NCBI GenBank assembly: GCA_018970605.1
Contig: JAGWWA010000002.1
Coordinates: forward strand, 272-64,271
Direction of reading: 5' to 3'
DNA length: 64,000 bases
Source: Planctomycetota bacterium
GTDB lineage: Bacteria; Planctomycetota; Planctomycetia; Pirellulales; UBA1268
The position numbers and the translations under genes were made by a program. Of the stretch, positions 1,794 to 60,726 are shown in pieces (the first letter of the stretch is position 1; each line of letters begins with the position of its first letter). Below the pieces are notes generated by a model. The model saw only the letters and a program-made list of their open reading frames with translations, was not told the DNA's origin and made no database searches.

Positions 1794-2160
1794 AAGCCCC
1801 GAGCGGCAGCGAGGGGATCCACGTCCGTCATGCCAGCCAGGAACGTCCCACTGCCACGCCCGTCCCACTGCCACGCCCGTCCCCTCGCTGGCGCTCGGGG
1901 CTTTTTGTTTCTGCCAATGCAACCAGCTCGGGGCTGCCCGTGCCCGGGAGCCGGCGTTGCTGACGAGCGAAGCCATGGATGGCGGAGCGAAGTCAGCATC
2001 GAGCGAGCGCAGGGCAGGATGCCCGTAGCGAGCGTCCGGCGACGGGCATGGGCAGCCCCGAGCGGCGGGGCGGAGTCGGCCGTGCCCCCATCGCTCACGC
2101 GATTGCGCTTCCTGAGTTCGGAGCGAGCGTCCGGCGGCGGGCATGGGCGGCCCCGAGCGG
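1794..2160 (+). repeat. Intergenic repeat mosaic 1: module E inverted pair (1794-1817/1880-1903) enclosing a 17-bp tandem duplication, module C (1926-2063), module A (2083-2116), partial C end (2126-2160)
   Basis: aagccccgagcggcagcgagggga pairs with tcccctcgctggcgctcggggctt. The unit cgtcccactgccacgcc occurs twice at 1844-1877. The C stem is gctcggggctgcccgtgccc/gggcatgggcagccccgagc. Confidence 0.9.
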
Positions 2161-2237
2161 CGCGCCACGGGAAGGCCGCGGCTCGTCAACTTTCACGTAC
2201 CGGCCGGGATCGGCTACCCTGTGAACCGGTGAACAGC

Positions 2238-3263
2238 ATGGAATCCTTCCGCCAGCCCAGCATTCAGGCTCCCGCCGCCGACGACGCCCCGCCGGAGGAC
2301 CGCGCGCTGCGGCCCCAGCGGATGGACGAGATGATCGGCCAACGAGCCGTGCACGAGCGGCTGATGATCGCCATCGATGCGGCGCGGAAGCGGGGCGAGA
2401 CGCTCGGCCACATCCTCCTCGACGGGCCGCCCGGCCTCGGCAAGACGACGTTCGCCACCTGCATCCCGCGGGAACTCGGCACCACCCTCCAGATCGCCAG
2501 CGGTGCCGCCCTCGCGGCGCCGAAGGATCTGCTGCCCTACCTCACCAATGCCGCCGAGGGCTCGGTGCTGTTCATCGACGAGATCCATCGGCTGCCGATC
2601 GCGGTGGAGGAGTTTCTGTATCCGGCGATGGAGGATTTTCGGATCGACATCACGCTCGGCGACGGCGTGGCGGCCCGGACGATCAACATGCCGCTGCGGC
2701 CGTTCACGCTGGTGGGAGCCACCACGCGGGCCGGCCTGATCTCGGCCCCGCTCCGCGACCGGTTCGTGATCCGCGAGCACCTCGACTACTACTCCGTCCC
2801 GGAACTCGCCGCGATCGTCCACCGCTCGGCCGGCAAACTCTCGATGCCGATGGACGATGAGACGGCCGACGAGATCGCCCACCGCAGCCGCGGCACTCCC
2901 CGGCTGGCCAACAACCGGCTGCGATGGATCCGCGACTTCTCCACGAGCAGGGCCGACAGCCAGATGAGCGTGGGGATCGCCCGCACGGCCCTGGAGATGC
3001 AGGGAATCGACGAACTCGGGCTCGATGGCTTCGACCGCAAGTATCTGGAGACGATCCAGCGTGTGTTCGCCGGCGGTCCGGTGGGGATCGAGGCCATCGC
3101 CCACACCATGAGCACCGCCTCCGACACGCTGGAGGATGACGTTGAGCCCTACCTGCTCCGCTGCGAACTGATCGTCCGCACGCCCCGGGGCCGGCGGCTC
3201 ACATCCAAGGGAGATGAACACCTCGGCGCCCCGCCGAAGGCCGGCCAGGGGAAGCTCTTTTGA
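2238..3263 (+). CDS. ruvB: Holliday junction DNA helicase RuvB
   Basis: LRPQRMDEMIGQ, Walker A GPPGLGKTT, LFIDEIHRL, GATTRAG and RGTPRLAN. The ORF-track extension back to 1830 runs through repeat DNA. Confidence 0.97.
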   Translation: MESFRQPSIQAPAADDAPPEDRALRPQRMDEMIGQRAVHERLMIAIDAARKRGETLGHILLDGPPGLGKTTFATCIPRELGTTLQIASGAALAAPKDLLPYLTNAAEGSVLFIDEIHRLPIAVEEFLYPAMEDFRIDITLGDGVAARTINMPLRPFTLVGATTRAGLISAPLRDRFVIREHLDYYSVPELAAIVHRSAGKLSMPMDDETADEIAHRSRGTPRLANNRLRWIRDFSTSRADSQMSVGIARTALEMQGIDELGLDGFDRKYLETIQRVFAGGPVGIEAIAHTMSTASDTLEDDVEPYLLRCELIVRTPRGRRLTSKGDEHLGAPPKAGQGKLF

Positions 3264-3282
3264 TGGGTTTTTCCGAGGCGGA

Positions 3283-3312
3283 TTGACCTTTCCCCGGCTT
3301 CGCGGCTACTCT
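3283..3312 (+). promoter_or_regulatory. Putative sigma70 promoter for the rpmF-fab operon
   Basis: TTGACC (3283-3288), 18-nt spacer, TACTCT (3307-3312), about 50 nt upstream of rpmF. Confidence 0.4.
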
Positions 3313-3360
3313 CTGGGGCTCTCGCGATCCCGTTCAGGCGATTCCAGTTCAGGTGATTCC

Positions 3361-3546
3361 ATGGCCGTCCCGAAGCGACGTCAGTCGAACCAGAAGACCC
3401 GCTCCCGCCGGGCCCACGATTTTCTCACGCCCCGCCAGTTGACGTTTTGCTCGACGTGCGGCAAGGCCGTGCCGACCCACCGGGTCTGCGGCACCTGCGG
3501 CTCCTACATGGGCAAGACGGTCATCAAGACCGGCGACGACGCCTGA
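3361..3546 (+). CDS. rpmF: 50S ribosomal protein L32
   Basis: MAVPKRRQS start with Zn-ribbon CSTC...HRVCGTCGSY. Confidence 0.95.
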   Translation: MAVPKRRQSNQKTRSRRAHDFLTPRQLTFCSTCGKAVPTHRVCGTCGSYMGKTVIKTGDDA

Positions 3547-3566
3547 CCCACTCCGTACCCCACCAG

Positions 3567-4511
3567 GTGACCCCCGTGGGCGACGCGACCAACGCCGGCG
3601 AGTCTGCCACGCCCGCGATCGTCTTTCCGGGTCAGGGTGCGCAGTCGGTCGGCATGGCCGGTGACTGGGTCGAGGCCTGCCCAAAGGCGGCTGAACTCTT
3701 CGCCCGCGCCTCGGCGATCCTCGGCTACGACCTGCTCGCCGTCTGCCGGAGCGGCCCCGCCGACCGGCTCAACACCACGGCCGTCAGCCAGCCGGCAATC
3801 CTCGTGACGAGCCTCGCCGCCCTCGAGGTGCTCCGCGGCCGCGAAGGCCACCCGCTCGACGCCGCACGGATCGCCGCCGGCCTCTCGCTCGGGGAATACA
3901 CCGCCCTGGTCTTTGCTGGAGCGGTCGGCTTCGACGACGCCGTGCGGCTCGTGGACGTTCGCGGTCGGGCGATGCAGGAGTGCGCCGAGCAGCGGCCCGG
4001 CGCGATGCTCGCCGTGCTCGGCGTCGACCGCGACAAACTCCTGGCCCTGTGCGACGAGTGCCGCGGAGGCGACGTGCTCGAGGTGGCGAACGTGCTCTGC
4101 CCCGGCAACATCGTCGCCTCCGGCTCGAAGGACGCCTGCGGACGGCTCGAGGCTGCCGCCATGGCCGCCGGGGCCATGAAGTGCGTGCCGCTCGAAGTGG
4201 CCGGCGCCTTCCACACCGCGCTCATGCAGCCTGCGGTCGAGCGGCTCACGGCCGCCCTGGCGGCGGCGGAGTTCCGGCCCCCGCGCATCCCCGTCGTCAG
4301 CAACGTCGATGCCAAGCCGCACACCGATCCGGCCGAAATCAAGGCCCTGCTGGCGCGGCAGGTCGTCGGTGTTGTCGAATGGAACGCTTCCATGGCATAC
4401 ATCCTCTCGACCGGGGTACGGTCGATCTGGGAAGTCGGTCCCGGACGCGTGCTCCGCGGACTGATGAAGCGGATCGACCGAAGCGTCGCCTGTGCGGGCG
4501 TGTTTGACTGA
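3567..4511 (+). CDS. fabD: Malonyl-CoA:ACP transacylase
   Basis: FPGQGAQ, SQPAI, GLSLGEY (catalytic Ser), GAFHT and EVGPGRVL. The GTG start is approximate. Confidence 0.93.
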   Translation: MTPVGDATNAGESATPAIVFPGQGAQSVGMAGDWVEACPKAAELFARASAILGYDLLAVCRSGPADRLNTTAVSQPAILVTSLAALEVLRGREGHPLDAARIAAGLSLGEYTALVFAGAVGFDDAVRLVDVRGRAMQECAEQRPGAMLAVLGVDRDKLLALCDECRGGDVLEVANVLCPGNIVASGSKDACGRLEAAAMAAGAMKCVPLEVAGAFHTALMQPAVERLTAALAAAEFRPPRIPVVSNVDAKPHTDPAEIKALLARQVVGVVEWNASMAYILSTGVRSIWEVGPGRVLRGLMKRIDRSVACAGVFD

Positions 4512-4570
4512 CCGAGCCCGGACGGCCGGCCACCTGTTGCTGTTTCCCGTGTTCCCAGGAGATTGAGGTC

Positions 4571-5353
4571 ATGGCTGACGAGTCTGCGCCGACGGGCCCC
4601 AAGCGGTTGAACGTGGACCTGAGCGGCCAGGTGGCCCTCGTCACCGGCGCCTCACAGGGCCTCGGGCGTGCCATCGCCGAAGCACTTGCCGCGGCCGGTG
4701 CCACCGTCGCCCTCGCCGCCCGCTCGGCCGACAAACTCTCCCAGGTGGCCGCGGGTATCCGCGCGGCGGGCGGCAAGGCCGAAGAGGTTCCCTGCGACGT
4801 TGCGAAGGCCGAAGAGGCCCAGCGCGTCGTCGAGGCCGTCGTGGAGAAGTGCGGCCGGCTCGACATCCTCGTCAACAATGCGGGCGTGACCCGCGACACG
4901 CTCCTCCCGCGGATGAGCGACGAGGAGTGGGACACCGTCCTCGACACGAATCTCCGCGGGCCGTTCCTGTTCATGCGGGCGGCCAGCCGGCCGATGATGC
5001 AGCAGCGGTATGGCCGGATCGTAAACGTGGCGAGCGTGTCGGGCCTGATCGGCAATCCCGGACAGGCCAACTACTCCGCGTCGAAGGCGGGGCTCGTGGG
5101 CCTCACCAAGACGGTCGCCAAGGAACTCGCCGGCCGGAAGATCACCGTGAATGCGGTGGCTCCCGGCTTCATCGCAAGCGACATGACGGCGGCCCTCGGC
5201 CCCGCACTGCTCGATGAGGTGAAGAAGCGGGTGCCGGCCAAGCGGCTCGGCGAGGCCTGGGAGATCGCGGAGGCGGTGCTGTTCCTGGCGGCGCCCTCGA
5301 GTGGCTACATCACGGCCCAAACCCTTGTCGTTGATGGCGGCATGATCGGCTGA
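4571..5353 (+). CDS. fabG: 3-oxoacyl-ACP reductase
   Basis: TGASQGLG, NNAGVTRD, GNPGQANYSASKAG (YxxxK) and VAPGFI. Confidence 0.96.
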   Translation: MADESAPTGPKRLNVDLSGQVALVTGASQGLGRAIAEALAAAGATVALAARSADKLSQVAAGIRAAGGKAEEVPCDVAKAEEAQRVVEAVVEKCGRLDILVNNAGVTRDTLLPRMSDEEWDTVLDTNLRGPFLFMRAASRPMMQQRYGRIVNVASVSGLIGNPGQANYSASKAGLVGLTKTVAKELAGRKITVNAVAPGFIASDMTAALGPALLDEVKKRVPAKRLGEAWEIAEAVLFLAAPSSGYITAQTLVVDGGMIG

Positions 5354-5405
5354 GATAGCGGATTCGAGGCAGGTCTCGAAGTCTGCTCCCGCTCCCGCCT
5401 CCGAA

Positions 5406-5601
5406 TGCCCCCATCGCTCACGCGATTGGGCTTCCTGAGGTCGATCGCAGGAAGCGTAACGCCGTCAGGCGTACGGCCGCCGCGCGCACGACGGAGCCGG
5501 CGCGAGGAGCCCTCATCGCTCACGCGATTGGGCTTCCTGAGGCCCGATCAGCGCACCACCGCCGGCACGCCCCCATCGCTGACGCGATTGGGCTTCCTGA
5601 G
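5406..5601 (+). repeat. Repeat mosaic 2: three module A copies (5406-5439, 5508-5541, 5568-5601) with a module B-like hairpin at about 5452-5477
   Basis: cccatcgc(tcac/tgac)gcgattgggcttcctgagg occurs three times. The hairpin acgcc-gtca-ggcgt lies in the first spacer. Confidence 0.92.
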
Positions 5602-5798
5602 GTCTGACCGGCACGGAGACGCCACGATCGCCCGGGTTTTCCCGGGCTGGACACTGGCGGTCGGGAACGGGTATATCTTCCCCGACAACCCAGGCAAGGT
5701 GCGCAGCCTCGGAGGGCTGCCGCCGATCCCGTCAGACCGCCCCGCCCCGCTCGCCGCCCAACCGCGGCCGGCAGCCGGGCTCCAGGAGGATTCACAAG

Positions 5799-6035
5799 GT
5801 GGCTTCAGTTCAAGAGCGTGTGATCGACATCGTGGCGTCGCAACTTGGCGTGAGCAAGGAACAGATCACGCCCGAGACGTCATTCATCAAGGATCTGGGT
5901 GCCGACTCGCTCGATACCGTCGAGCTGGTGATGGAACTCGAGGAAGAGTTCGAGATCAACATTCCGGACGATGCGGCCGAAAAGATTCAGACGGTCGGCC
6001 AGGCGGTGGAGTTCATCGAAAAGAACCAGTCGTGA
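5799..6035 (+). CDS. acpP: Acyl carrier protein
   Basis: [23 protein letters not shown] aggagg upstream of the GTG start. Confidence 0.97.
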
Positions 6036-6072
6036 TCGGCTGATCGCGAAGCACGGACGGCGGAGCGACGGT

Positions 6073-7311
6073 ATGAAGCGACGGGCGGTTGTAACCGGCG
6101 TGGGAGTCGTCACCTCCCTGGGCCGGAAGGTTGACGTGTTCTGGGATCGGATTGTGCGCGGCGAGAGCGGCGTCGGCCCGATCACCCTGTTCGACGTCTC
6201 AGGCTATCGCGTGCAGTTCGGCGGCCAGGTGCACTGGGAGCCGGAGAACGAGGACATCTCGTCCGCGAAGGACCTGAAGCGGCTCGATCGCTTCACGCAG
6301 TTCGCGATCGGTGCCGCCAAGGATGCGGCCACCGACTCCGGAATCGACTTCTCGAAGGAGGAGCCCTATCGCTGCGGCGTGGTGATCGGCTCCGGCATCG
6401 GCGGCCTCTGGGAGTTCGAGACCCAGGAGGAGCGGATGCTCCACAAGGGCATCGACAAGGTGTCGCCGTTCACCATCCCGAAGCTGATGGTCAACTCGGC
6501 CAGCGGCCACGTTTCCGCCCTCTACGGGGCCAAGGGACCCAACTTCGCGGTCGCCACGGCCTGTGCCAGCGCAGCCAACTCGATCGGCAGCGCGTTGCGG
6601 GCGATCCAATACGGCGACGCCGACGTGATGATCACCGGGGCGAGCGAGGCCGCGCTCACCCCGATCGGCCTCGCGGGCTTCCAGAACATGCGGGCCCTGT
6701 CTTTCCGCGGCGATGCGCCGCAGCAGGCGAGCCGGCCGTTCGACGTCGATCGCGACGGCTTCGTGCTCGCCGAGGGAGCCGGCGTCATCGTGGTCGAGGA
6801 ACTCGAGCACGCCCGCCGACGCGGCGCCCGGATCTACGCGGAGCTCAAGGGCTACGGTGCCAGCGGCGACGCCGGCCACATCACCCAGCCCGACGAGGAG
6901 GGCCGCGGTGGTGCGCACGCGATGATGCTGGCGTTGCAGGACGCGGGCATCGGTCCGGAGGCCGTCCAGTACATCAACGCCCACGGCACCAGCACGCCGC
7001 TCGGCGACGTGGCCGAGACGAAGGCCGTGAAGCGGGTGTTCGGCGGGCATGCCAAGCGGCTGGCGATCTCCAGCACCAAGAGCAATCTCGGCCACACGCT
7101 GGGGGCCAGCGGCGGCATCGAAGCCGTCATCTGCTCCCTGACGATCGACCGCGGTGTGATCACCCCCACGATCAACCTCGACACACCCGACCCCGAGTGC
7201 GATCTCGACTACGTGCCGAAGGTGGCCCGCGAGGCGAAGGTCGACGTCGCCATGAGCAACTCGTTCGGATTCGGCGGCCACAACGCGAGCCTGGTGTTCG
7301 CCCGCCTCTGA
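6073..7311 (+). CDS. fabF: Beta-ketoacyl-ACP synthase II
   Basis: Intact Cys-His-His triad (TACAS, NAHGTST, KSNLGH) and C-terminal SNSFGFGGHNA. Confidence 0.96.
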   Translation: MKRRAVVTGVGVVTSLGRKVDVFWDRIVRGESGVGPITLFDVSGYRVQFGGQVHWEPENEDISSAKDLKRLDRFTQFAIGAAKDAATDSGIDFSKEEPYRCGVVIGSGIGGLWEFETQEERMLHKGIDKVSPFTIPKLMVNSASGHVSALYGAKGPNFAVATACASAANSIGSALRAIQYGDADVMITGASEAALTPIGLAGFQNMRALSFRGDAPQQASRPFDVDRDGFVLAEGAGVIVVEELEHARRRGARIYAELKGYGASGDAGHITQPDEEGRGGAHAMMLALQDAGIGPEAVQYINAHGTSTPLGDVAETKAVKRVFGGHAKRLAISSTKSNLGHTLGASGGIEAVICSLTIDRGVITPTINLDTPDPECDLDYVPKVAREAKVDVAMSNSFGFGGHNASLVFARL

Positions 7312-7350
7312 GCGGAGCGCACCGGCTCCGGACCGCGGGAGGCATCGGAC

Positions 7351-8331: not shown

Positions 8332-8387
8332 CCATGACCGACGACAGACCGAGGCCCGTCGGGGCCGGAACTCGACAGGATGCGTGC

Positions 8388-9707: not shown

Positions 9708-9733
9708 CGAGTCGCGGGCCAGACCGCCGCTCC

Positions 9734-14308: not shown

Positions 14309-15660
14309 CCGCCCCGAAGAAGCCCGCCGGCAAAAAGCCGGCCCACGCCCCGAAGAAGCCCATCGCCAAAGCGGCCGCCAAGCCGGCCGCCAAACCAGGA
14401 TCAAAGCCCGCACCGACGAAGGCGTCCCCTCCCGTCAAGGCATCGGGCAAGTCGGCCCCGGCGAAGGCCGGGGGGCCGGCGAAGGCCGGGGGGCCGGCGA
14501 AGGCCGGGGGGCCGGCGAAGGCCGTGGGTCCCGCGAAGGCCGCGGCCGCCGCGAAACCCGTCGTACCCGCGAAGGTCGAACCACCGAAACTGCCGCCCGA
14601 GAAGGTGCCGCCGCGGGCCCAGTTGATTCCGAAACTTCACAAGGCGCTCAAAGCCGCCTACAAGCCGGTGCCGTTCGACACCGCCCGGCCGCTGCTCGAC
14701 CAGGTGCTCGTGGCCTGCTGCCTCGAGAACGCCCCCTACGACGTGGCCGAGAAGGCCTGTGCACGGCTGCGTGAGTCGGCCTTCGACCTCAACGAGATCC
14801 GCGTGACCACCGTCGCGGAACTCGCCGAGTTCCTCCACGACCTGCCCGACCCGGCCCATGCCGCCCTCTCGCTCCGCCGCGTGCTGCAGAGCGTGTTCGA
14901 ATCGACCTACAACTTCTCGCTCGACCACGCCAAGAAGCACTCCCTGGCCCACGGCCTCAAGGTGCTCGAGGGCATGCACGGCGTGCCGCCGTTCGTCGTG
15001 GCACACGTCGTCTCGACGGCGCTCGACGGACACATGATTCCGCTCGACAAGGGGGCGATCGCGGCGCTCTACGTGTGCGGGCTGACGACGCGGGCGGAGT
15101 ACGACTCCGGCAAGGTGCCCGGCCTGGAACGGATCATCGGCAAGAAGTCCGGGGTGGAGTTCAGTTCGCTGCTCCACCAGTTCGGCATCGAGGTGCTCAC
15201 CAACCTCCACGGCAACACCGTGCGGAAGGTGATGCAGGCGGTGAACCCGGCGGCCCTCAAGGACCGCATGCCGAAGCGGGGCGACCCGCTCCCGACCCCT
15301 ACACCACCGCCGCCCGCCACCGACAAGGAGAGCCTCAAGGCCGCCGAAGCCGCCCGAAACGCGGCCGAGGAGCACCGCCCGGCCGGCCCTCAGGCAGCGG
15401 CCCGCCCCGTGGGGAAGACGCCAATGCCCCCCGCCGGGTCGGGACCCAAGAAGCCGGGCGACGGCAAGTCGGGGCCGAAGCCGTTCGTGGTGAAGCCGAA
15501 CGTCGGCAAACCGCTGACGATCAAGCCGCAGATGGCTCCGCCGCCGGAGCCCGCGAAGCCGGCGCCGGCCGCCAAGAAGCCGACGAAGCCCGCCGCCAAG
15601 CAACCCGACGCGAAGGGAGACCGTCATTCGGCCGACCTGAGCAAGCGGAAGCCCCGGTGA
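14305..15660 (+). CDS. Hypothetical protein with Lys/Ala/Pro-rich (histone H1-like) termini and a degenerate endonuclease III/HhH-like core
   Basis: PAKA repeats at the N-terminus and a KKP-rich C-terminus. Core reads LLDQVLVACCLEN..DLNEIRVTTVAEL..GHMIPLD. ATGA overlap with rbfA. Confidence 0.7.
   Translation: MTAPKKPAGKKPAHAPKKPIAKAAAKPAAKPGSKPAPTKASPPVKASGKSAPAKAGGPAKAGGPAKAGGPAKAVGPAKAAAAAKPVVPAKVEPPKLPPEKVPPRAQLIPKLHKALKAAYKPVPFDTARPLLDQVLVACCLENAPYDVAEKACARLRESAFDLNEIRVTTVAELAEFLHDLPDPAHAALSLRRVLQSVFESTYNFSLDHAKKHSLAHGLKVLEGMHGVPPFVVAHVVSTALDGHMIPLDKGAIAALYVCGLTTRAEYDSGKVPGLERIIGKKSGVEFSSLLHQFGIEVLTNLHGNTVRKVMQAVNPAALKDRMPKRGDPLPTPTPPPPATDKESLKAAEAARNAAEEHRPAGPQAAARPVGKTPMPPAGSGPKKPGDGKSGPKPFVVKPNVGKPLTIKPQMAPPPEPAKPAPAAKKPTKPAAKQPDAKGDRHSADLSKRKPR
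14458..14541 (+). repeat. In-frame 18-bp tandem repeat encoding PAKAGG
   Basis: ccggcgaaggccgggggg three times, followed by degenerate copies. Confidence 0.85.
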
Positions 15661-19446: not shown

Positions 19447-19669
19447 GGCACACAGGTTGAAAACCTGCGCTACGAGAGGCAGCGAGGGGCTGCCCGTGCC
19501 CGGGAGCAGGCGTTGCTGACAAGCGCAGCCAGGATGGCGGAGCGCAGTCAGCATCGAGCGAGCGAAGGGCCGGAGCCCGCAGCGAGCGTCCGGCGACGGG
19601 CATGGGCAGTCCCGAGCTATGCGGCGGTGCCAGCAGGCCCCCATCGCTTCCGCGATTGGGCTTCCTGAG
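19447..19669 (+). repeat. Repeat mosaic 3: D (19447-19473), C (19481-19617), A (19637-19669)
   Basis: cacaggttgaaaacctgcgctac, a full C module, then cccatcgcttccgcgattgggcttcctgag. Confidence 0.9.
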
Positions 19670-22305: not shown

Positions 22306-22582
22306 TGCCCCATCGCTTCCGCGAGTGGGCTTCCTGGATGCGTCACGAGTGGTGAGCGAGGGGCTGTCCATGCCCGGGAGCCGGGCTGTGGGAGCAAGCG
22401 AACCCAGGATGGCGAAGCGCAGCGGACACGCAGAGAGCCGAGGCCTGGAGGGCCGAGGCGAACGTCCGGCGACGGGCGTGGGCAGCCCCGAGCGGCACGG
22501 CGACCATGCCCCCATCGCTTCCGCGATTGGGCTTCCTGATTCTCGGCATGCCCCCATCGCTTACGCGATTGGGCTTCCTGAG
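22306..22582 (+). repeat. Repeat mosaic 4: A (22306-22337), C (22355-22493), A, A (22507-22539, 22549-22582)
   Basis: Direct sequence comparison. The last two A copies have a 42-bp period. Confidence 0.9.
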
Positions 22583-27621: not shown

Positions 27622-27918
27622 GGCACACAGGTTGACAACCGATGCGACCAGCGGCGAGCGAGGGGCTGCCCGTGCCCGGGAGCCGGCGTTGCTGACGAGC
27701 GGAGCCATGGATGGCGGAGCGATGTCAGCATCGAGCGAGTGAAGGCCAGGAAGGCCGCAGCGAGCGTCCGGCGACGGGCATGGGCAGCCCTGAGCGGGAG
27801 GTGTCCGAGGCAGGCACACGGGTAGACAACCGATGCGACCAGCGGCGCACCGCCAGCACGACCGGGGCCGCGATGTGGTTCCACCCGCTATCCCCTCGCT
27901 GGCGCTCGGGGCTTCCTG
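27622..27918 (+). repeat. Repeat mosaic 5: 35-bp direct repeats (D variant, 27622-27656 and 27813-27847) flanking C (27657-27795), plus an E half (27891-27918)
   Basis: ggcacac(a/g)ggt(t/a)gacaaccgatgcgaccagcggcg occurs twice, and tcccctcgctggcgctcggggcttcctg follows. Confidence 0.9.
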
Positions 27919-31605: not shown

Positions 31606-31998
31606 GACGGGGCATACGCGGCCCCGAGCGGTGCGGAGCCAGCATGCCCCCATCGCTTACGCGATTGGGCTTCCTGAGTCCCGGCATGCCCCCATCGCTC
31701 ACGCGATTGGGCTTCCTGACCAGGAAGCGAGGGGATGCCCGTGCCCTCGAGCGGGCTGTGGGAGCAAGCGAAGCCACGATGGCGAAGCGCAGCGGACACG
31801 CAGTGAGCCGAGGCCGGGAGGGCCGAGGCGAACGTCCAGCGAGACGGCATGGGCGGCCCCGAGCGGTGCGGAGCCAGCATGCCCCCATCGCTTACGCGAT
31901 TGGGCTTCCTGAGTCCCGGCGTGCCCCCATCGCTTACGCGATTGGGCTTCCTGAGTCCCGGCGTGCCCCCATCGCTTACGCGATTTGGCTTCCTGATG
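31606..31998 (+). repeat. Repeat mosaic 6: partial C end, A, A (31645, 31687), C (31726-31864), A, A, A (31880, 31922, 31964)
   Basis: Five A copies with a 42-bp period and linker tcccggc(a/g). The lead-in gccccgagcggtgcggagccagca is duplicated. Confidence 0.93.
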
Positions 31999-32170
31999 CA
32001 GGGAGCGAGAGGCCCCGAGCCCGTGAGCATCGACCGGGCAAGACAGGCGGTTCGGGCGGGCTTGCTCCGGCAGGGCCCGTCCCTCTAGGTTCCCGCCCCC
32101 GCACGCCGGCGGGAACCGGAGTCTCCCGTTGCACCTGCCCGTCCGCTCCCCCCGCTCGCCCGCGCTGTCG

Positions 32171-42350: not shown

Positions 42351-42510
42351 CAGGCTCATCCACGTGTTGTGTGGACAGCCGGTAACTTGCGGGCTGGAAA
42401 AGTTCATAACCCGATCGTGCCTGCCCTCGACCGGGCTATTGAAGCAATCGCAGCCACGACCAATCCGCCTGCGGCGGATCGGTGCCCGGCGAAGTGCAGG
42501 CAGCATCGTG

Positions 42511-42671
42511 TGAGCGAAACCCAGGATGGCCGCAGCGAACGTCCGGCGACAAGGCACGGGCGGACTCTCGCTCGCCCTCAGTAGCACAGGTTGTCAACCT
42601 GTGCCGAGATCACGGCTGAAGCGCTCCACGCCGCGATGCGCCACATGTGCAGGTTGACAACCTGCACCTAC
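42511..42671. repeat. Partial module C (42511-42578) and GTAG-tagged REP doublet D (42581-42671)
   Basis: GTAGcacaggttgtcaacctgtgc ... gtgcaggttgacaacctgcacCTAC. Confidence 0.85.
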
Positions 42672-43630
42672 TTCCGCGGGTGGAACTTCTCGTGCACCGC
42701 CCGGAGGCGGCCGGCATCGACGTGCGTGTACCGCTGCGTCGTGGCGATGCTGGCGTGCCCGAGCATCTCCTGAACGTGCCGGAGGTCGACGCCTCCCGCC
42801 ACGAGATGCGTGGCGAAACTGTGCCGCAGCGTGTGGGGGCCGATGTCACTCGGCACGCCGGCGTTGTCGGCATGCAGTCGCACGATCTCCCAGATTCGCA
42901 TCCGCGACAGTCGGTTGCCACGAGTGGAAAGCACCGCCCAGGAGGGCATTCCAGTGGCTCGCGCGGCAAACGCCTGCCGGGGGCCGTCGAGCCAGGCCCG
43001 GACGGCGGCGATCGCCCGCCGGCCGAGCGGCACCACCCGCTCTTTGTTTCCCTTGCCGCGGCACGTGCAGAAGCTCTCCGCGAGATGCACGTCGCCGAGG
43101 CGAAGCGTGGAGACCTCGGAGGCACGGCAGCCCGTGGCGTAGAGCAACTCCAGCAGCGCCCGGTCGCGGCAGGCCCGGGGCGACCCGCCCTCGGGGCTCT
43201 CCAGCAACCGATCCACCTGGGCCGGCGAGAGCGTGCCCGGGATCACGTCGTCCCGCTTCGCGGCGGTGATCAGCTCCGCGGGACTCTCGGTGATGACGCC
43301 CTCGAGTTGCAGGAATGCGTAGAAGGTCTTGAGCGTCGCCGCCTGCCGGGCGATGCTCGCCCGCGCCAGGCCCTTCTTCGCGAGGGCCGCGAAGTAGTCG
43401 CCCAGGTCGCGCACGGTGAGGGTCGCCGGGGGCCGGCCGGCCAGCCACGCGGTGAAGTCACGGAGGTCGCGGCGGTAGGCAGACTGCGTGTTGGCGGCGA
43501 GCGCCCGCTCGTGACGGACGTAGTCGAGAAACCGCTCGACGAGGATCGAGGCCGCCGCCCCCGTCTCCGCCGCGACCACCTGGTCGAGCACGATCTTCCG
43601 CGTCCGCCGTGGCTTTTGTGAGTCACTCAT
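42668..43630 (-). CDS. xerD: Site-specific tyrosine recombinase XerD (XerC/D family)
   Basis: NTQSAYRRDL, RDRALLELLYATGCR, GKGNKER, PHTLRHSFATHL and LGHASIATTQRY. XerD versus XerC is not certain. Confidence 0.85.
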   Translation of the reverse strand: MSDSQKPRRTRKIVLDQVVAAETGAAASILVERFLDYVRHERALAANTQSAYRRDLRDFTAWLAGRPPATLTVRDLGDYFAALAKKGLARASIARQAATLKTFYAFLQLEGVITESPAELITAAKRDDVIPGTLSPAQVDRLLESPEGGSPRACRDRALLELLYATGCRASEVSTLRLGDVHLAESFCTCRGKGNKERVVPLGRRAIAAVRAWLDGPRQAFAARATGMPSWAVLSTRGNRLSRMRIWEIVRLHADNAGVPSDIGPHTLRHSFATHLVAGGVDLRHVQEMLGHASIATTQRYTHVDAGRLRAVHEKFHPRK

Positions 43631-43682: not shown

Positions 43683-43812
43683 CGTCCAAGCCCAACGCCG
43701 TGAGGCGTGGGGCGAACCGCCACCGGACGCGGCGTTCAGCGTGGTATGCCCGCGGCCTTCCGGCTGGTCGGCTTCCACACGCACCATCCAAGCCCAACGC
43801 CGCGAGGCCGTG
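43683..43812 (+). repeat. Module B repeat (full copy plus a second hairpin)
   Basis: ccaagcccaacgcc-gtga-ggcgtggggcgaaccgccacc..., with a second ccaagcccaacgccgcgaggc at about 43788. Matches 55830-55896 (-) and 60229-60300 (+). Confidence 0.8.
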
Positions 43813-50683: not shown

Positions 50684-50699
50684 GCTGGGAGGTGGGGTG

Positions 50700-51798: not shown

Positions 51799-52089
51799 TC
51801 CCCTCGCTGCCGCTCGGGGCTTTCTGGAGGCAGCCAAGGATCGAGAGAGACGGAGCCGGCGTGCCCCCATCGCTCACGCGATTGGGCTTCCTGAACGGCG
51901 AGCGAGGGGCTGCCCATGCCCGGGAGCCGGCGTTGCTGACCAGCGCAGCCAGGATGGCGAAGCGCAGGCAGCATCGAGTGAGCGGAGGGCAGGATGCCCG
52001 TAGCGAACGTCCGGCGACGGAGCGTGGGCAGCACCGAGCGGCGTGGCGAAGTCAACGTGCCCCCATCGCTCACGCGATTGGGCTTCCTG
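51799..52089 (+). repeat. Repeat mosaic 7: E half (51799-51826), A (51862-51894), C (51901-52039), A (52058-52089)
   Basis: Direct sequence comparison with the other loci. Confidence 0.9.
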
Positions 52090-54320: not shown

Positions 54321-54338
54321 CACCCCCCGGTGAACCAC

Positions 54339-55169
54339 ATGACCGCGACGACTGCTGCCGCTCCGCCGATCGCCAAACTCCAGGCGATGTTCGCCGCCAA
54401 TCGGGCCGCCGGCCGAAAGGCGCTGGCGCCATTCGTGACCGCCGGCGACCCCGACGCCGACACGACGGTGGCCGTGCTGGAGACACTCGACAAGGCGGGG
54501 GCGTCGCTCTGCGAACTCGGCGTGCCCTACAGCGACCCGATCGCCGACGGCCCGGTGATCCAGGCCTCCTACACGCGGGCGTTGGGCAAGGGGCTCACGC
54601 TCGCCGGTGTCTTCGATGCAGCCCAGCGGGCTTCCGCGACCTGCACGATGCCGATCCTCGCGATGGCGAGTTATTCGCTGATCTTTCGCCGTGGCATCGA
54701 CCGCTTCGTGGCCGACGCCGTGACCGCGGGCCTCGCCGGCTTCGTCGTGCCCGATCTGCCGCTGGAGGAGTCCGACGATCTCGATGCTGCCTGCCGCAAG
54801 GCCGGGCTCGCGCTCGTTCGGCTCGTCACGCCCACGACCCCGCCGGACCGGGCCGAGGCGATCGCGAGAAAGTCCACCGGCTTTCTCTACTGCGTGTCGG
54901 TGGCGGGGGTGACCGGTGCCCGGACCGAACTTCCGCCGGGTCTCGTGGACCGGGTGAAGTGGCTGAAGACCAAGACCGACGTACCCATCCTGGTTGGCTT
55001 CGGGATCTCCGGCCCTGAGCAGGTGCGGGCCGTGGCGGCCGTCGCCGACGGCGTGATCGTGGGCTCGGCCCTCGTCCGCAGGATCGCGGAGGCAGCCGAC
55101 CAGCCGCGAAGCCAGATGCTCGCGGATGTGGCGGCGTACACGGCCTCCCTCACGGCCGCCTGCGGCTGA
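54339..55169 (+). CDS. trpA: Tryptophan synthase alpha chain
   Basis: TAGDP, ELGVPYSDPIADGPVIQ, VGFGIS and DGVIVGSA. Confidence 0.97.
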   Translation: MTATTAAAPPIAKLQAMFAANRAAGRKALAPFVTAGDPDADTTVAVLETLDKAGASLCELGVPYSDPIADGPVIQASYTRALGKGLTLAGVFDAAQRASATCTMPILAMASYSLIFRRGIDRFVADAVTAGLAGFVVPDLPLEESDDLDAACRKAGLALVRLVTPTTPPDRAEAIARKSTGFLYCVSVAGVTGARTELPPGLVDRVKWLKTKTDVPILVGFGISGPEQVRAVAAVADGVIVGSALVRRIAEAADQPRSQMLADVAAYTASLTAACG

Positions 55170-55313
55170 CGGCTACCCGCCCGGAACGGTCGGACGTCGG
55201 CACGCCGCGGCATGGGCGGAGGAACCGGATTCGTCTGGCCCGGCCGGGGAACGAAAGCCTATAACGTGCCGTAGAACCAGTGGCTGGCGTGCCCCCGTGC
55301 GTGCGAGCTTGCC

Positions 55314-55811
55314 ATGTTTTCAGCCCGCGATCCGTCCGACATCGACCGCTTCTTCCGAGGCCTGACAGAGTACGCGTTTCACACGCGGCTCGGGGTGGTC
55401 GATCCGCCGCTCGTCGATTACGTGTCGCTGCTCCTCGTGCGGTTTCTCCGCATCGACACGGCAGCGGCGAAGACCGCCGCGCCGCCGGTCACCGACGTCG
55501 TGTCGCTTTTCGTGGAGGCCGCGGGCCATCCGGAGCCCGACGAGGCCCGTGAGGAATACCGCCACATCGGCGACGTCACGCTCTTCTGGAGCGGCCTCTA
55601 TCCTGAGGCACTCCGGCGCATCGAGGCCCCGAGCCGCGTCGATCGGTTGGCCGCCTACCGCTCGACGGGCAAGCGGGCCTATCGGCTTGCGGCCACGCTC
55701 GAGCCGATTGATGCCGACGAAGAGCGACGGCTGCTGGAACGGCTTTCCGACGACTACGACCTCTGCGTCGAGGGCCTCGCCGAGGTGCGGCGCATCTGGG
55801 GTGAGGGCTGA
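55314..55811 (+). CDS. Hypothetical protein
   Basis: Coding-like composition. Motifs YRHIGDVTLFWSGLYPE and GKRAY. Confidence 0.75.
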   Translation: MFSARDPSDIDRFFRGLTEYAFHTRLGVVDPPLVDYVSLLLVRFLRIDTAAAKTAAPPVTDVVSLFVEAAGHPEPDEAREEYRHIGDVTLFWSGLYPEALRRIEAPSRVDRLAAYRSTGKRAYRLAATLEPIDADEERRLLERLSDDYDLCVEGLAEVRRIWGEG

Positions 55812-55829
55812 TTCGGGGCACACGTGAAC

Positions 55830-55896
55830 CGGCGTCCCGCGCTGAACCTGGCGTCTGGTGGCGGTTCACCCCACGCCTTACGGCGTCGGGCTTGGA
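55830..55896 (-). repeat. Module B repeat between convergent genes
   Basis: The reverse complement ggtccaagcccgacgccgtaaggcgtggggtgaaccgccaccagacg matches 43683. Confidence 0.8.
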
Positions 55897-55945
55897 CCAC
55901 CGACGGGCAGCCCCGAGCCTCGGGCACGGGTATTCCGAGCGCGGC

Positions 55946-56848
55946 CTACGACCGTCCCATCACCTGCGCCGGCCACGGTGGCTCGAAACCGACCGACTCC
56001 ACGCCGACACCCGCCTGCACGAGCGCCGCAACCACCTCACCGAGCGACGCCCTCGCGGGATCGAGCTGAAACGCGACCCGATCGGATTCTTCGCAGTCGC
56101 ACGCTCCGAGAAGACCCCGGATCACGGCCGCCGCCCGAGGCGCCGCTCCACGGCAGACCACGGCATACCGCCACGTCCGCCCGGCGGCGAAGGCGGCCGG
56201 ATTTGCCTGTCCTGAGGCGATCAGTCGCCCCTCGGCAAGTACGGCGAGGTGCGTGAAGCACGCCGGCACGTCGGCGTCGTCGATGGCCGCGAGCACCGTC
56301 CTGTCGATGAGGTGCGCATCGGCAATCAGCCGGGCCACGTCCCGCCGCTCGAAGGCGTCGAGGCCGCCAAACGGATCGTCGAGCAGGAGCACCTGCGGGT
56401 CATGGAGGAGCGCCCGGGCCACGAGGATTCGCTTGCGATGGCCTGCGGGCAGGTCGTCGAGCAGAGCCGACCGCTCGCGGTCGAGCCCCGCCATCGCCAG
56501 CGCGCGATCGACGGCCATCCGCAGACCTTCCCCCTGAAGTCCGGCGGCTGCGGCAAACACCTCCAGAAACTCGCCGGCCCGCAGTCCAGGCCATTCCGGC
56601 AGCCTGTCGGGCACGTAGCCCACACGGCGCCGCACCTGCTCGGCCTCCCGGCCGACGGCGTGCCCATCGACGAGGATGGCGCCGGCGTGCAGCGGCAGCA
56701 CGGTGGCCACTGCGGCGAGCAGCGAACTCTTGCCGGATCCCGTCCGGCCCACCACCGCCAGCGCCTCGCCCGGTGCCACGGCGAGCGAGAGCGACTCGAC
56801 GACCACGCGGCCCGACCGCTCGACCGTAGCGCGTTCGCAGCGGATCAT
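55946..56848 (-). CDS. ABC transporter ATP-binding protein (degenerate signature motif)
   Basis: Walker A GRTGSGKS, signature LPAGHRKR, Walker B LLLDDP. Confidence 0.85.
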   Translation of the reverse strand: MIRCERATVERSGRVVVESLSLAVAPGEALAVVGRTGSGKSSLLAAVATVLPLHAGAILVDGHAVGREAEQVRRRVGYVPDRLPEWPGLRAGEFLEVFAAAAGLQGEGLRMAVDRALAMAGLDRERSALLDDLPAGHRKRILVARALLHDPQVLLLDDPFGGLDAFERRDVARLIADAHLIDRTVLAAIDDADVPACFTHLAVLAEGRLIASGQANPAAFAAGRTWRYAVVCRGAAPRAAAVIRGLLGACDCEESDRVAFQLDPARASLGEVVAALVQAGVGVESVGFEPPWPAQVMGRS

Positions 56849-56862
56849 CGGCCCCTCGTCGT

Positions 56863-58404
56863 TCAGGCCCGAGAACCGGCCGCCAGCCGCTCGTTGGTCA
56901 TCTCGATGGAGACGAGCAACCCCTTCGCCTTGTTGAGCGTCTCCTCGAACTCCTTCTCGGGAACGCTGTCGGCCACCACGCCGGCCCCCGACTGCACGGA
57001 GGCCCGACCGCCGGCGACCACGACCGTCCGCAACGCGATGCAGGTGTCCATCGAGCCATTGAAATCGACGTAGCCGACGGCGCCCGCGTACGGCCCGCGG
57101 CGGACGGGCTCGAGCTCGTCGATGATCTCCATGGCACGGATCTTCGGGGCTCCGGACACCGTCCCCGCGGGGAGGCAGGCGCGAAGCGCGTCGAACGCGG
57201 AGAGCCCCTCGGCGAGCCTGCCGGTGACGTTGCTCGTGATGTGCATCACGTGGCTGTACCGTTCGATCACCATCACGTCGGAGAGTTCCACGGAGCCGAT
57301 CGCCGCCACGCGGCCGACGTCGTTCCGCCCCAGATCGATGAGCATCACGTGCTCGGCCCGCTCCTTGGGATCGGCGAGCAGTTCCGCGGCCAATGCACGG
57401 TCTTCGTCGGGTGTGGCCCCCCGCCGCCGCGTCCCCGCCAGCGGCCGCACGGTCACGGCGCCATCGATGCACCGCACCATGATCTCGGGCGAACTGCCCA
57501 CGAGCGTGCACGACGGCGACCGCAGGTAGAACATGAACGGGCTCGGGTTCACCACGCGGAGCGTGCGGTAGAGCTCGAGGGGCGACGCCGCAAACGGCAT
57601 GTCGATCCGCCGGCTGAGCACCACCTGAAAGATGTCTCCGGCCCGGATGTACTCGATCGACCTCTCGACGGCCGCAAGAAACGCCTCGCGGCCGAAGGCC
57701 GACCGCGCCGTGCCGTCAGTCAGGCAGGCGGGCTCCCGCTTCGAGCCGATGTCGGCCGGCGGCGGCCAGGCGTGCGGGGCGGAGAGCGTGGCGATGGTTT
57801 CGTCGATCCGGCGGCAGGCGGCGGCATAGCCGCGGTCGAGCCCGGTGTCGTCGTCCTCGTTCACCTCGGCCAGCACGACGACGTCGATCGCCTTGGTGAC
57901 GTTGTCGAAGACCACCATGCGGTCGTAGAACCCGAACGACAGGTCAGGCAGGCCGCGGTCATCGGGGGGGGCATCTGGCAGCTGCTCCACGTAGCGAACG
58001 GTGTCGTAGCCGGCATAACCGACGACGCCGCTGGTGAACGGCGGCAGCTCCGGCAGCCGCGCGACCCGGAACGGCGTCATCCTCCGCTCGAGTTCCGCGA
58101 GTGGATCCGGGCACTGCAGCGTTTCCGCGCCCTCCTTGCCCGACACCGTCACCTCGGAGCCCCAGGCCTCGAGGCGGAGAAACGGATCAGCCGCCAGGAA
58201 GCTGTACCGGCCCACCTTCTCGCCGCCGACGACGCTTTCGAAGAGGCAGGCGGCCTCGCCGGCATCGAGCTTGGCGAAGGCCGACAAAGGCGTCAGGCCG
58301 TCGGCAAACAGCCGCCGGTAGACGGGCACGAGGCGGCGGCCCGCGGCGGGCGCAAGGCCCCGCGCCAGTTCTCCAAAACGCGACCTGTCCGGCAGGTGGG
58401 GCAT
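56863..58404 (-). CDS. trpE: Anthranilate synthase component I
   Basis: FESVVGGEKVGRYSF, GDIFQVVLS, NPSPFM, PLAGT, KERAEHVMLIDLGRND and PAGTVSGAPK. Confidence 0.96.
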   Translation of the reverse strand: MPHLPDRSRFGELARGLAPAAGRRLVPVYRRLFADGLTPLSAFAKLDAGEAACLFESVVGGEKVGRYSFLAADPFLRLEAWGSEVTVSGKEGAETLQCPDPLAELERRMTPFRVARLPELPPFTSGVVGYAGYDTVRYVEQLPDAPPDDRGLPDLSFGFYDRMVVFDNVTKAIDVVVLAEVNEDDDTGLDRGYAAACRRIDETIATLSAPHAWPPPADIGSKREPACLTDGTARSAFGREAFLAAVERSIEYIRAGDIFQVVLSRRIDMPFAASPLELYRTLRVVNPSPFMFYLRSPSCTLVGSSPEIMVRCIDGAVTVRPLAGTRRRGATPDEDRALAAELLADPKERAEHVMLIDLGRNDVGRVAAIGSVELSDVMVIERYSHVMHITSNVTGRLAEGLSAFDALRACLPAGTVSGAPKIRAMEIIDELEPVRRGPYAGAVGYVDFNGSMDTCIALRTVVVAGGRASVQSGAGVVADSVPEKEFEETLNKAKGLLVSIEMTNERLAAGSRA

Positions 58405-58549
58405 GGGCGGGCAGTCGGGCGACGCGGGCAACGGCTCGGGGAAGAGCCTACCCCCGGATCCGCCGACCAACAACACGCCGCCCGACAGACCGAGGGCGAC
58501 CGTGAGCCCGCGACCCGCTATGATTCGAGGTGTTGTCGAGGAGCGGTCG

Positions 58550-59134
58550 ATGCAGTGCCAACAGTGCGATAAGCAGGCGGTCTTCCACATCACCGAGTTG
58601 GAGACGGGCGAGGTGCGCGAACTCCACCTCTGCGAGGACCACGCGCGCGTCTACCTCAACCAGTCGGAGGCGGCACAGGAGGGGGAGGAGAAACCGGCCG
58701 GTGGACTGTCGGGCCCGCTGACGGTCGGCCAGACCGCCGACGAACTCGCGCTCCTCGACAAGAAGGCCTGCCCGATGTGCGGCATCACCTTCTTCGAATT
58801 CCGCAACCAGGGGCGACTCGGATGCCCCCACGACTATGTCCACTTCGAGAAGGAACTCGAGCCATTGATCGCCAACATTCACGGTGGCACGCAGCACACC
58901 GGCCGCCGGCCGGAGCGGCCCGCGATGGCGGGTGGCGACGCGCTGCCGGAGGGCACCGACGATCTCACACGCGTGATCGGGCTCCGCCGGAGCATGCAGG
59001 AGGCGATCTCCTGCGAAGCCTACGAACGGGCCCGCGAGGATCGCGACGCGGTGCGGAGCATCGAGGAACGGTGGCTGACGGGGCCGCAGACCGGGGCAGG
59101 GCCAACGAACGAAGGCGGACGGGGCGACCGATGA
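58550..59134 (+). CDS. mcsA: Protein-arginine kinase activator McsA (UVR domain)
   Basis: CQQC, LCEDH, CPMC, GRLGCPHDY and C-terminal UVR EAYERA..RD. ATGA overlap with mcsB. Confidence 0.92.
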   Translation: MQCQQCDKQAVFHITELETGEVRELHLCEDHARVYLNQSEAAQEGEEKPAGGLSGPLTVGQTADELALLDKKACPMCGITFFEFRNQGRLGCPHDYVHFEKELEPLIANIHGGTQHTGRRPERPAMAGGDALPEGTDDLTRVIGLRRSMQEAISCEAYERAREDRDAVRSIEERWLTGPQTGAGPTNEGGRGDR

Positions 59135-60195
59135 AACTTGACACCCTCGCCGAGGACGTCGGCGAATGGCTCCGGGGCACGGGTCCGGAATCGGACATCG
59201 TGATGAGCAGCCGCGTGCGGCTCGCCCGGAACGTGGCCCACTATCCGTTCGTGAGCCGCCTGTCGGACCAGGATCGCGGTGACGTCGAGCGGTTCCTCCG
59301 CGAGCGGATCACCGCCTCTTCGGCCGGCAGCCAACTCGAGTACATCGACGTCGGCCGGCTGGAGGAGGTCGACCGACAGTTCCTCGTGGAGCGGCAGTTG
59401 ATCAGCCGCGAACACGCCGAGGCCCAGGGGGCTCGCGGCGTGGCGATCGACGGCCGCGAGCAGGTGAGCCTGATGATCAACGAGGAGGACCACCTCCGGA
59501 TCCAGTGCATGCACAGCGGCCTCGACCTGCGGGGGGCCTGGGAGCAGATCAGGGCGGTCGACGACCAGATCGGCCGGGTCGTGCCCTACGCCTTCCACCC
59601 GCGATGGGGCTACCTCACCGCCTGCCCCACCAACGTGGGCACCGGCATCCGGGTGAGCGTGATGCTGCACCTCCCGGCCCTGGTCATCACACGGCAGATC
59701 GACAAGGTCTTCCGGAGCCTGCACAAGATCTCCCTGGCGGTCCGCGGCCTCTACGGCGAGGGCTCCCAGGCGATGGGCGACTTCTACCAGATCTCCAACC
59801 AGACCACGCTCGGCAAGACCGAGGAGGAACTGATCGAGCAGGTCGGCGACGTGGTGCCGGTGCTGATCGACTACGAGCGGCGGGCCCGCGAGTTTCTGGT
59901 GCGGGAAACCCAGCAGAACGTCCACGATCAGGTGAGCCGCGCGTACGGCATCCTCCGGACAGCCCAGACGATCACCGCCGAGGAGACGATGCAGCTCCTC
60001 TCCCGAGTCCGCATGGGGGTCCTGCTCGGGCTGATCGGCGACGTGAAGATCGCCGACATCAACTCGCTTCTCGTCCGTACGCAGCCGGCCCACTTGCAGA
60101 AGATCCGCGGCGTCGAGCTCGACACGAAGGACCGCAACATCGAGCGAGCCCGCTACCTTCGCCGCCATTTCGAAGGCGGCCCACCGCAGAACTGA
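59131..60195 (+). CDS. mcsB: Protein arginine kinase McsB
   Basis: SSRVRLARN, INEEDHLR, CPTNVGTG, RGLYGEGS and QISNQ. Confidence 0.95.
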   Translation: MKLDTLAEDVGEWLRGTGPESDIVMSSRVRLARNVAHYPFVSRLSDQDRGDVERFLRERITASSAGSQLEYIDVGRLEEVDRQFLVERQLISREHAEAQGARGVAIDGREQVSLMINEEDHLRIQCMHSGLDLRGAWEQIRAVDDQIGRVVPYAFHPRWGYLTACPTNVGTGIRVSVMLHLPALVITRQIDKVFRSLHKISLAVRGLYGEGSQAMGDFYQISNQTTLGKTEEELIEQVGDVVPVLIDYERRAREFLVRETQQNVHDQVSRAYGILRTAQTITAEETMQLLSRVRMGVLLGLIGDVKIADINSLLVRTQPAHLQKIRGVELDTKDRNIERARYLRRHFEGGPPQN

Positions 60196-60228
60196 CAAGG
60201 GGCCGTCAAGAGCCTCGCGCGGTCGACG

Positions 60229-60726
60229 TCCGAGCCCAACGCCGCGAGGCGTGGGGCGAGCCACCACACAATGCGGCGTCCAGCGTGGTTTGCCCGAGGC
60301 CTCGTGCGGTTCCCACGTGATCCTCGCGCGTTTCTGCACGGAACCCTCAAAGCCCGGAGCGGAAGCGACGGGAACGGCTCCGCGGATCGGCACGCATCGC
60401 TCGCGGCCGCCACGCGTGATCCCCTCGCTCCCGCTCGGGGCTTCCTGGCGGAGCGACACCGCCGCAGGAACGCCTCAGGATCACGTGCCAGTCGTAGAGG
60501 CCCCGACGGCATCGGGTCTTCAGGGCCTTCGCAAGGGAATGGCGGTGAGGGGCAGCCCATGCCCCGAGAGCCGGCGTTGCTGGCCAGCGTAGGCAGGATG
60601 CCGGAGCGCAGCCAGCATCGAGCGAGTGGAGGGCAGGATGCCCGCATCGAGCGTCCGGCGATGGGGCGTGGGCTGCCCCTCACCGGCGCCGGCGGCACGA
60701 GCAGGTTGGAAACCGTCTGTTCTGCG
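60229..60726 (+). repeat. Repeat mosaic 8: B (60229-60300), E pair (60350-60448), C (60544-60684), D-like (about 60698-60726)
   Basis: The C terminal stem is ggtgaggggcagcccatgcccc/ggggcgtgggctgcccctcacc. The other modules were identified by comparison. Confidence 0.88.

Follow-up and report, generated by a model that had tools for sequence, protein, structure and literature searches.

The 64,000-nucleotide (nt) stretch of DNA analysed here, which we call the window, comes from a Planctomycetota bacterium of the order Pirellulales (contig JAGWWA010000002.1, assembly GCA_018970605.1) and carries a dispersed, non-coding repeat of ~139 nt that an earlier note on this DNA had named module C. New here are an orientation of module C that is independent of transcription but tied to GC skew, a range that crosses phyla, and a tested link to the TwoAYGGAY RNA motif. 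The strand that carries the Y fold and the GGA tips of this repeat is referred to as the GGA strand. The genome assembly holding the window is 2.86 Mb in size and 76% complete.

Module C copies in the window and the genome

The seven full copies reported in the earlier note were all located, each on the plus strand, and share a mean column identity of 84% when aligned. Module C sequence is also present at the three sites described as partial copies (2126, 31606 and 42511). However, the site at 42511 belongs to a worn near-full copy (42413-42571) whose arm-1 loop contains an inserted hairpin, and the one at 31606, though readable in the sequence, amounts to merely ~27 nt of the 3' end and was missed by our profile hidden Markov model (HMM). 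The copies are listed below together with their surroundings, which include repetitive extragenic palindromic (REP) hairpins of three types (D, R and GTAG).

1926..2063, plus strand: full copy between a ruvA-like gene and ruvB, then a D-type REP; terminal GA/GA loop replaced by Watson-Crick pairs
2095..2158, plus strand: 3' fragment behind the D-type REP, left over from a tandem unit, found by the HMM and in the sequence
19481..19617, plus strand: full copy between DUF1573 and proS genes, both on the minus strand, and hence antisense to them; GTAG-type REP upstream, D-type REP downstream
22355..22493, plus strand: full copy of the GGA/GGA arm-1 subtype in the convergent gap after an HD-domain yhaM-like gene; D-type REPs on both sides
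27657..27795, plus strand: full copy in the rnr-gcvT gap, enclosed by a 36-nt direct repeat from a GTAG-type REP
31606..31628, plus strand: short 3'-end remnant preceding a D-type REP array
31726..31864, plus strand: full copy in the D-type REP array, with a 90-nt direct repeat on either side; arm-1 tip ACGAT instead of GGA
42413..42571, plus strand: worn near-full copy with the inserted hairpin, found by the HMM and in the sequence
51901..52039, plus strand: full copy between DUF3500 and mutM genes, both on the minus strand
60544..60684, plus strand: full copy in a convergent gap, with coordinated changes in both halves of the basal stem

The HMM, refined on this genome, yields 178 matches genome-wide, of which 138 are full length, and none in the reversed genome. 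Lengths of 137-140 nt or 141 nt account for 116 of the 138 full-length copies, a few insert variants aside. By our own gene calls, none of the 138 lies inside a gene. A second hairpin is inserted precisely in the arm-1 loop of at least seven copies (window 42413-42571 and G000 copies of 165-166 nt), and REP-like hairpins of other kinds are inserted in loops at L116, L155 and L168.

The branched fold and its relation to TwoAYGGAY

On the plus strand, each full window copy adopts a fold in which a long basal stem leads through a three-way junction to two arms, which bears out the earlier description of a terminal stem enclosing two arms. Fold z-scores against 200 shuffles range from -4.2 to -10.4 on the plus strand and from +0.05 to -7.8 on the minus strand. 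The paired changes that had been pointed out (the ctg/cag swap in the copy at 60544 and the change of gctgac/gtcagc to gctggc/gccagc), as well as the listed arm tips, were all found in the sequence.

Covariation was evaluated with an alignment of 126 copies (127 of the 138 were no longer than 146 nt, and one rearranged copy was left out), which have a mean identity of 78% and include one pair at 98% or above. A tree-based substitution shuffle yields five column pairs at E<=0.05, all within predicted helices. Among 47 chosen copies, 91.7% of cells pair, a level reached by none of 500 shuffles and compared with 32-43% for slid controls, and 31 of 49 pairs vary on both sides. Across lineages, 44 of the 49 do so in an alignment fitted to the model. 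Because G-U outnumbers A-C by 99 to 22 over 31 pairs, the folded strand is fixed, and it is the GGA strand that folds more stably in 125 of the 126 copies with RNA parameters and in all 126 with DNA parameters.

G.A positions exchange with Watson-Crick pairs while arm length remains unchanged. The terminal GA/GA loop is open in 55 copies, closed from the left in 19 and closed from the right in 10, a pattern that, judged from the sequences, looks like one arm having been copied from the other. Some of the "compensatory" covariation is therefore likely to be mutational in origin, arising via arm-to-arm copying, and covariation alone is no proof of selection. The earlier proposal that structure rather than sequence is under selection is supported as far as conservation of structure over sequence is concerned. 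Two subtypes had been recognized, whereas we count at least six for arm 1 and at least six for arm 2, and all four combinations are present in 188 of 357 column pairs formed between arm 1 and arm 2. The motif GCGNAGC, which had been placed at the junctions, is present in 123 of the 126 aligned copies, but in the global fold it forms GNA/GNA internal loops within the arms and not mini-hairpins at the junction.

The two GGA tips pointed to TwoAYGGAY, which we took as a lead. This motif corresponds to Rfam family RF01731, clan CL00106 (PMC2864571), has been listed since 2010 as an RNA of unknown function, and is debated as either a CsrA sponge or mobile DNA (PMC4333381; 10.64898/2026.09.22.753630). 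Rfam searches of module C, both at the gathering cut-off and at E<=10, gave chance matches only. The RF01731 model itself, with a gathering cut-off of 43 bits, has no match in the window; its best match in the genome reaches 21.4 bits and lies on no module C copy, and copies from this and other lineages give no match at E<=10. In the reverse direction, a model built from module C (R1) matches 18 of 28 RF01731 loci in the corresponding position and on the same strand (22-44 bits, E<=0.01). These 28 remained of 30 returned loci after removal of two that overlapped others. Part of the R1 score is plain structure, since the opposite strand of RF01731 loci scores up to 27 bits.

Module C and TwoAYGGAY have the same layout: arm 1 follows the basal stem, a single A lies between it and arm 2, which is closed by G-C, and two unpaired bases precede the closing stem. 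AGGAU/AUGGAU and ACGAY tips occur in both, though not every arm of module C has an A(N)GGA tip; true RF01731 members likewise vary to ACGAY. Because the junction layout matches and R1 scores RF01731 loci, module C is likely to be a distant, long-armed branch of TwoAYGGAY that falls below Rfam's membership cut-off. The earlier description of the element as "undescribed" is therefore not supported, even though RF01731 misses it at threshold. Further shared traits are a high and variable copy number, divergent doublets, and REP arrays at a fixed place downstream, all described for TwoAYGGAY in a preprint (10.64898/2026.09.22.753630). A D-type REP lies downstream of 48 of the 138 module C copies, and divergent doublets are common among copies in Eremiobacterota, where some enclose a passenger gene. 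In contrast, tandem units outnumber divergent pairs in the present genome (11 versus 2). In addition, arm 1 of module C has roughly double the length of its TwoAYGGAY counterpart, and GA/GA and GNA/GNA internal loops occur in both arms. In Pseudomonadota, TwoAYGGAY is extended by extra hairpins, a 3' pseudoknot and a 5' array of short repeats; upstream 5-6-mer arrays and a 3' extension were not seen around module C on inspection by eye, and conservation of the flanks is low. The main text of the preprint does not name Planctomycetes as hosts.

Shorter hairpins tipped with GCCATGGATGGC, some of them in tandem, occur outside module C (L001-L006; G000:C76, C102, C28, C82 and C54). They are the genome's best RF01731 matches (17-21 bits) and may represent a second, short TwoAYGGAY-like family.

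By BLAST, many copies are present in each of 36 congeners, and none of 24 other families in the order has copies. A model search of 150 other genomes of the phylum, with 21 candidates scored per genome, returned one positive, and a search with the junction pattern returned 2 of 400 genomes, with none in the backwards control. A scan of all species genomes revealed at least 122 loci, including some in Eremiobacterota, Krumholzibacteriia and one gammaproteobacterium. R1 scores these distant-lineage loci at 50-80 bits, and their basal-stem sequence is wholly different with pairing retained. The family's range is thereby widened to lineages that Rfam's model misses. Viral contigs, plasmids and phages gave no match. 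Records titled 'Candidatus Kuenenia' (L113, L115, L121 and others; L131) hold many copies that match the genus HMM and are probably mislabelled bins. Divergent element pairs surround one small gene in G538, L261:900-1900 and L260:850-1800; the gene enclosed in L261 reads, by eye, like a D-aminoacyl-tRNA deacylase, and gene capture or inversion is possible.

Orientation relative to transcription, GC skew and REPs

Sixteen of the 138 copies lie at contig edges, and the 122 that have both neighbours occupy 59 convergent, 4 divergent, 29 tandem-sense and 30 tandem-antisense gaps. Convergent gaps make up 186 of 987 background gaps of at least 100 nt. The near-equal split of the tandem gaps (29:30) suggests that transcripts do not carry the GGA strand preferentially.

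A different result was obtained for GC skew, which was measured at four-fold sites and behaves as expected for replication (r=-0.55 between strands, 114 contigs). The GGA strand coincides with the C-rich strand at 90 of 129 loci (whole-contig flip, p=1e-4), and the same bias emerges from genes more than 3 kb away only (85 of 125, p=3.5e-4). It is found in convergent gaps (37 of 44), in which transcription sets no direction, and, at p=0.08, in tandem gaps (30 of 47). Loci from other genomes that match the same HMM lie on the C-rich strand in 45 of 66 cases. In two Eremiobacterota genomes, 12 of 14 single copies follow the bias; this sample comprised 20 regions, several sharing a contig, from which six doublet loci and one locus without a model match were set aside. 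Module C thus offers a clean genomic test within the TwoAYGGAY debate, with 59 tandem gaps that show no transcribed-strand preference and two phyla that show a GC-skew preference. Together, these observations point to a process at the DNA level. The terms 'replichore', 'leading strand' and 'lagging' do not occur in the main text of the TwoAYGGAY preprint (10.64898/2026.09.22.753630).

Neighbouring REPs have a nearly fixed orientation as well. A REP of the D, R or GTAG type lies within 120 nt of 90 of the 138 copies, and the REP tags lie on the strand opposite the GGA strand in ratios of 53:0 (D), 15:2 (R) and 32:6 (GTAG type), where the 5' foot of the D and R types is assigned by analogy, a canonical GTAG being present only in the third type. 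In sequence, the arms of R-type REPs match both module C ends in swapped order. Two examples in the window are as follows.

27890..27918, minus strand: R-type REP, of the type that flanks the genome's only Y1 (HUH) transposase gene (L007)
52058..52089, minus strand: D-type REP hairpin, read opposite to the GGA strand whenever beside a copy

This sole Y1_Tnp gene (L007:594-1440; G000:C85) encodes ~157 amino acids, scores 24.6 bits and sits between inverted pairs of R-type REPs in a REPtron-like layout; there are ~300 R-type REPs genome-wide. No module C match near the cut-off of the model was found near it. D-type REPs number 14 in the window (among them those at 5390-5604 and 31629-32000) and 165 genome-wide, and they are often arranged as 42-nt tandem arrays. 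A palindromic repeat of 70-76 nt, termed P-type, has 72 copies genome-wide, including window positions 43683-43758, 55831-55897 and 60227-60302. Its strand bias (7 G-rich versus 22 C-rich at abs(z)>3) is weaker with another pattern.

As a rule, the G-rich strand is the leading strand. The word GGGNAGGG, which we take to be KOPS (FtsK-orienting polar sequence), ties for first on the G-rich strand among 30 words of the same composition. The skew therefore suggests that the G-rich strand is the leading strand here as well, in which case the REP-tag strand would be the lagging-strand template.

Comparison of filled and empty sites, an approach put forward in the earlier note, revealed that copies come, go, flip and swap interiors among congeners. 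Among 30 loci at the mutM site, 3 hold a copy in the same orientation, 8 hold one in the opposite orientation (5 full, 3 worn), 14 have none and 5 are uninformative. Two of the 14 loci without a copy hold another repeat, and in G004 the same REP flanks surround a different interior. At the yhaM 3' end (30 loci), five copies, including the one in this genome, share an orientation and one is opposite, and the rnr-gcvT gap of G023 has no copy. In four conspecific DNA runs, contigs break at the copies, and no clean empty-site joint was seen, the breaks preventing judgement. A different palindromic repeat occurs at the mutM and yhaM sites in L426, L428, L376 and L379 (G033, G590).

Explanations for the spread of module C

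The earlier note had left a choice between a structured noncoding RNA and a mobile element that moves as single-stranded DNA under a nuclease encoded elsewhere. Of these, the mobile DNA repeat is better supported, but a RAYT (REP-associated tyrosine transposase) or GIY-YIG gene flanked by copies is not supported. We give about an even chance to the explanation that module C spreads REP-guided, as single-stranded DNA at the replication fork, and is a cargo of REP mosaics instead of a dedicated RNA gene. A Y1/HUH enzyme of the RAYT type, acting in trans, would cut and rejoin at REPs and carry module C along, with the REP-tag strand serving as lagging-strand template for the single-strand step. 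Subtypes would then arise by recombination among copies and by arm-to-arm copying. Binding of a protein to the junction and both tips is the likely reason for retention of the fold, and the best-named candidate for this putative binder is CsrA acting on read-through transcripts.

This explanation is favoured on the basis of strand use by IS200/IS605 elements, TnpA-REP activity and the orientation of REP arrays in SBW25. IS200/IS605 elements are described as excising from and inserting into the lagging-strand template (PMC5027513, PMC6006769), and IS608 and ISDra2 as using that template (PMC5027513). TnpA-REP is reported to cleave at a distance from REPs and to recombine bacterial interspersed mosaic elements (BIMEs), and capture of flanking DNA has been proposed for it (PMC3333891). 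In SBW25, the direction of tandem GI-GIII REP arrays is set by chromosome half (PMC3116915), and tandem REP arrays are located downstream of TwoAYGGAY (10.64898/2026.09.22.753630). The orientation data thereby single out one strand, one class of enzyme as a candidate and the substrates on which it might act.

Known systems resemble module C only in part. According to published accounts, it shares with IS200/IS605 elements (IS608, ISDra2; PMC5027513) strand specificity, a lack of target duplication, and an orientation tied to the lagging-strand template. However, module C lacks a transposase gene, its left and right ends are not distinct, no guide or target tetranucleotide was found, and its bias is ~70%. 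With REPs, BIMEs and REPINs (REP doublets forming hairpins) and the enzymes RAYT (TnpA-REP) and class 3 TnpA-Y1, as these are portrayed in PMC3333891, PMC3116915, PMC6006769 and PMC3733652, it shares an intergenic location, high copy number, enrichment in convergent gaps, mosaic and tandem arrays, and again no target duplication. In contrast to these 20-40-nt hairpins, module C is 139 nt long and branched. Its foot has no conserved 5' tetranucleotide, with flank information never exceeding 0.58 bits across 24 positions; it is not enriched around Y1 genes; and its fold lies opposite to the REP-tag strand.

Several observations weigh against REP-guided spread. The first group concerns the REPs: 48 of the 138 copies have no D-, R- or GTAG-type REP within 120 nt, and REPs more than 400 nt from copies show no strand bias (D 21:13, R 45:50, GTAG type 11:18). 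A second group concerns the enzyme. A Y1 transposase is present in 25 of 46 congeners and was not found in the distant carriers G088, G460, G461 and G462. Only four model matches occur across 59 Y1/GIY-YIG loci (one across the 29 Y1 loci), and a RAYT/GIY-YIG partner gene flanked by module C was rejected for this lack of enrichment. Searches for Y1, GIY-YIG, RVT_1 and DUF772 revealed no mobilising enzyme tied to module C; a DUF559 search was positive in 1 of 5 genomes. Moreover, because the conserved fold lies opposite to the REP-tag strand, an HUH enzyme would not be its reader, and REP-guided spread leaves retention of the fold on the opposite strand unexplained. With regard to replication, leading-strand markers based on ribosomal proteins proved mostly false motif matches with weak skew, and the five opposite-orientation copies at the mutM site for which skew is clear are found on the G-rich strand. 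No skew bias is seen among true RF01731 members (7 of 17 scored loci, from 20 fetched regions), and extension of the strand bias to them was rejected. Finally, no precise empty site was found, and the identities given above for the aligned copies mark them as old.

Two alternatives appear unlikely, though far from negligible, and we rate them equally. In the first, module C is a CsrA/RsmA sponge whose GGA-strand RNA would present a CsrA dimer with two loops, and the copies would be retained and multiplied for this function, a role proposed for TwoAYGGAY (PMC4333381; Discussion of 10.64898/2026.09.22.753630). The gene csrA was found in each carrier that was checked, including 46 of 46 congeners, mostly in 3-5 copies, and also G069, G088 and G459-G463. 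It is found in 11 of 11 element-positive Eremiobacterota versus 69 of 121 overall, although such kin are not independent. Membership of RF01731 in clan CL00106 also fits, as do A(N)GGA tips in arm 1 of 108 of the 126 aligned copies. However, arm 2 has such a tip in 61 and both arms in only 51, so a sponge role is at best partial. Both tips fit in 12 of 28 Eremiobacterota copies, and ACGAU tips recur. The predicted tips close into a triloop, whereas the high-affinity CsrA site is described as an ANGGAX hexaloop (PMC4005645). Orientation in tandem gaps is random with respect to transcription, and a sponge does not predict the skew bias. Compared with CsrB, RsmY and RsmZ, as presented in PMC4005645 and PMC4333381, module C shares GGA hairpin tips and a host with csrA, but it has two tips that are often non-consensus and occurs in ~140 dispersed copies. 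A scan of one site (51901) gave no promoter or terminator match. None of 24 sequencing runs listed with the element is from RNA, which has no bearing on expression. Paralogues of csrA number 3-5 in most congeners (G001-G036, G582-G590).

In the second, spread is strand-neutral, by gene conversion, tandem duplication or some other enzyme, and the skew bias results from loss, the stronger fold being deleted more often when on the lagging-strand template. Consistent with this idea, the more stable GGA strand is the one kept off the inferred lagging template, the bias is only ~70%, and the G-rich strand at the mutM site carries worn copies that have lost or gained internal sequence. Duplication and recombination are evident from the 11 tandem pairs and the column pairs with all four combinations. 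However, the energy gap between strands is small (5 of ~46 kcal/mol, DNA parameters), RF01731 members with similarly long stems are unbiased, and the fixed orientation of neighbouring REPs is left unexplained.

Very improbable is a miniature inverted-repeat transposable element of a DDE transposase (e.g. IS1182-like, duplicating a target hairpin) or a reverse-transcriptase retro-element: although the module C ends are inverted repeats and long direct repeats surround 14 of 107 isolated copies (4.8 expected), those long repeats are REP copies every time and never unique flanks, short target duplications of at least 5 nt are absent (0 of 102; 1.9 expected), DUF772 (IS1182), the sole DDE family searched, turned up in 1 of 5 genomes, where it is a broken fragment lying 1.4 kb away from the nearest module C sequence, RVT_1 occurs in 0 of 5, and basal-stem sequences are wholly different between lineages.

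Returning to REP-guided spread, a bolder version seems to us rather unlikely: module C may be a fork-polarised module that REP-guided single-strand transposition on the lagging template has spread through four or more phyla and that places a folded CsrA-binding site in transcript 3' ends. If true, dozens of transcripts per genome would gain a CsrA site, linking mobility and regulation, a connection that the preprint calls unresolved for TwoAYGGAY (10.64898/2026.09.22.753630).

Two other features of the window are recorded here. A tyrosine recombinase gene (XerC/D-like, with Phage_integrase and SAM domains; 42668-43630, minus strand) adjoins the worn copy and is probably a chromosomal housekeeping gene. 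An 18-nt tandem repeat in five copies lies within a coding region at 14440-14565.

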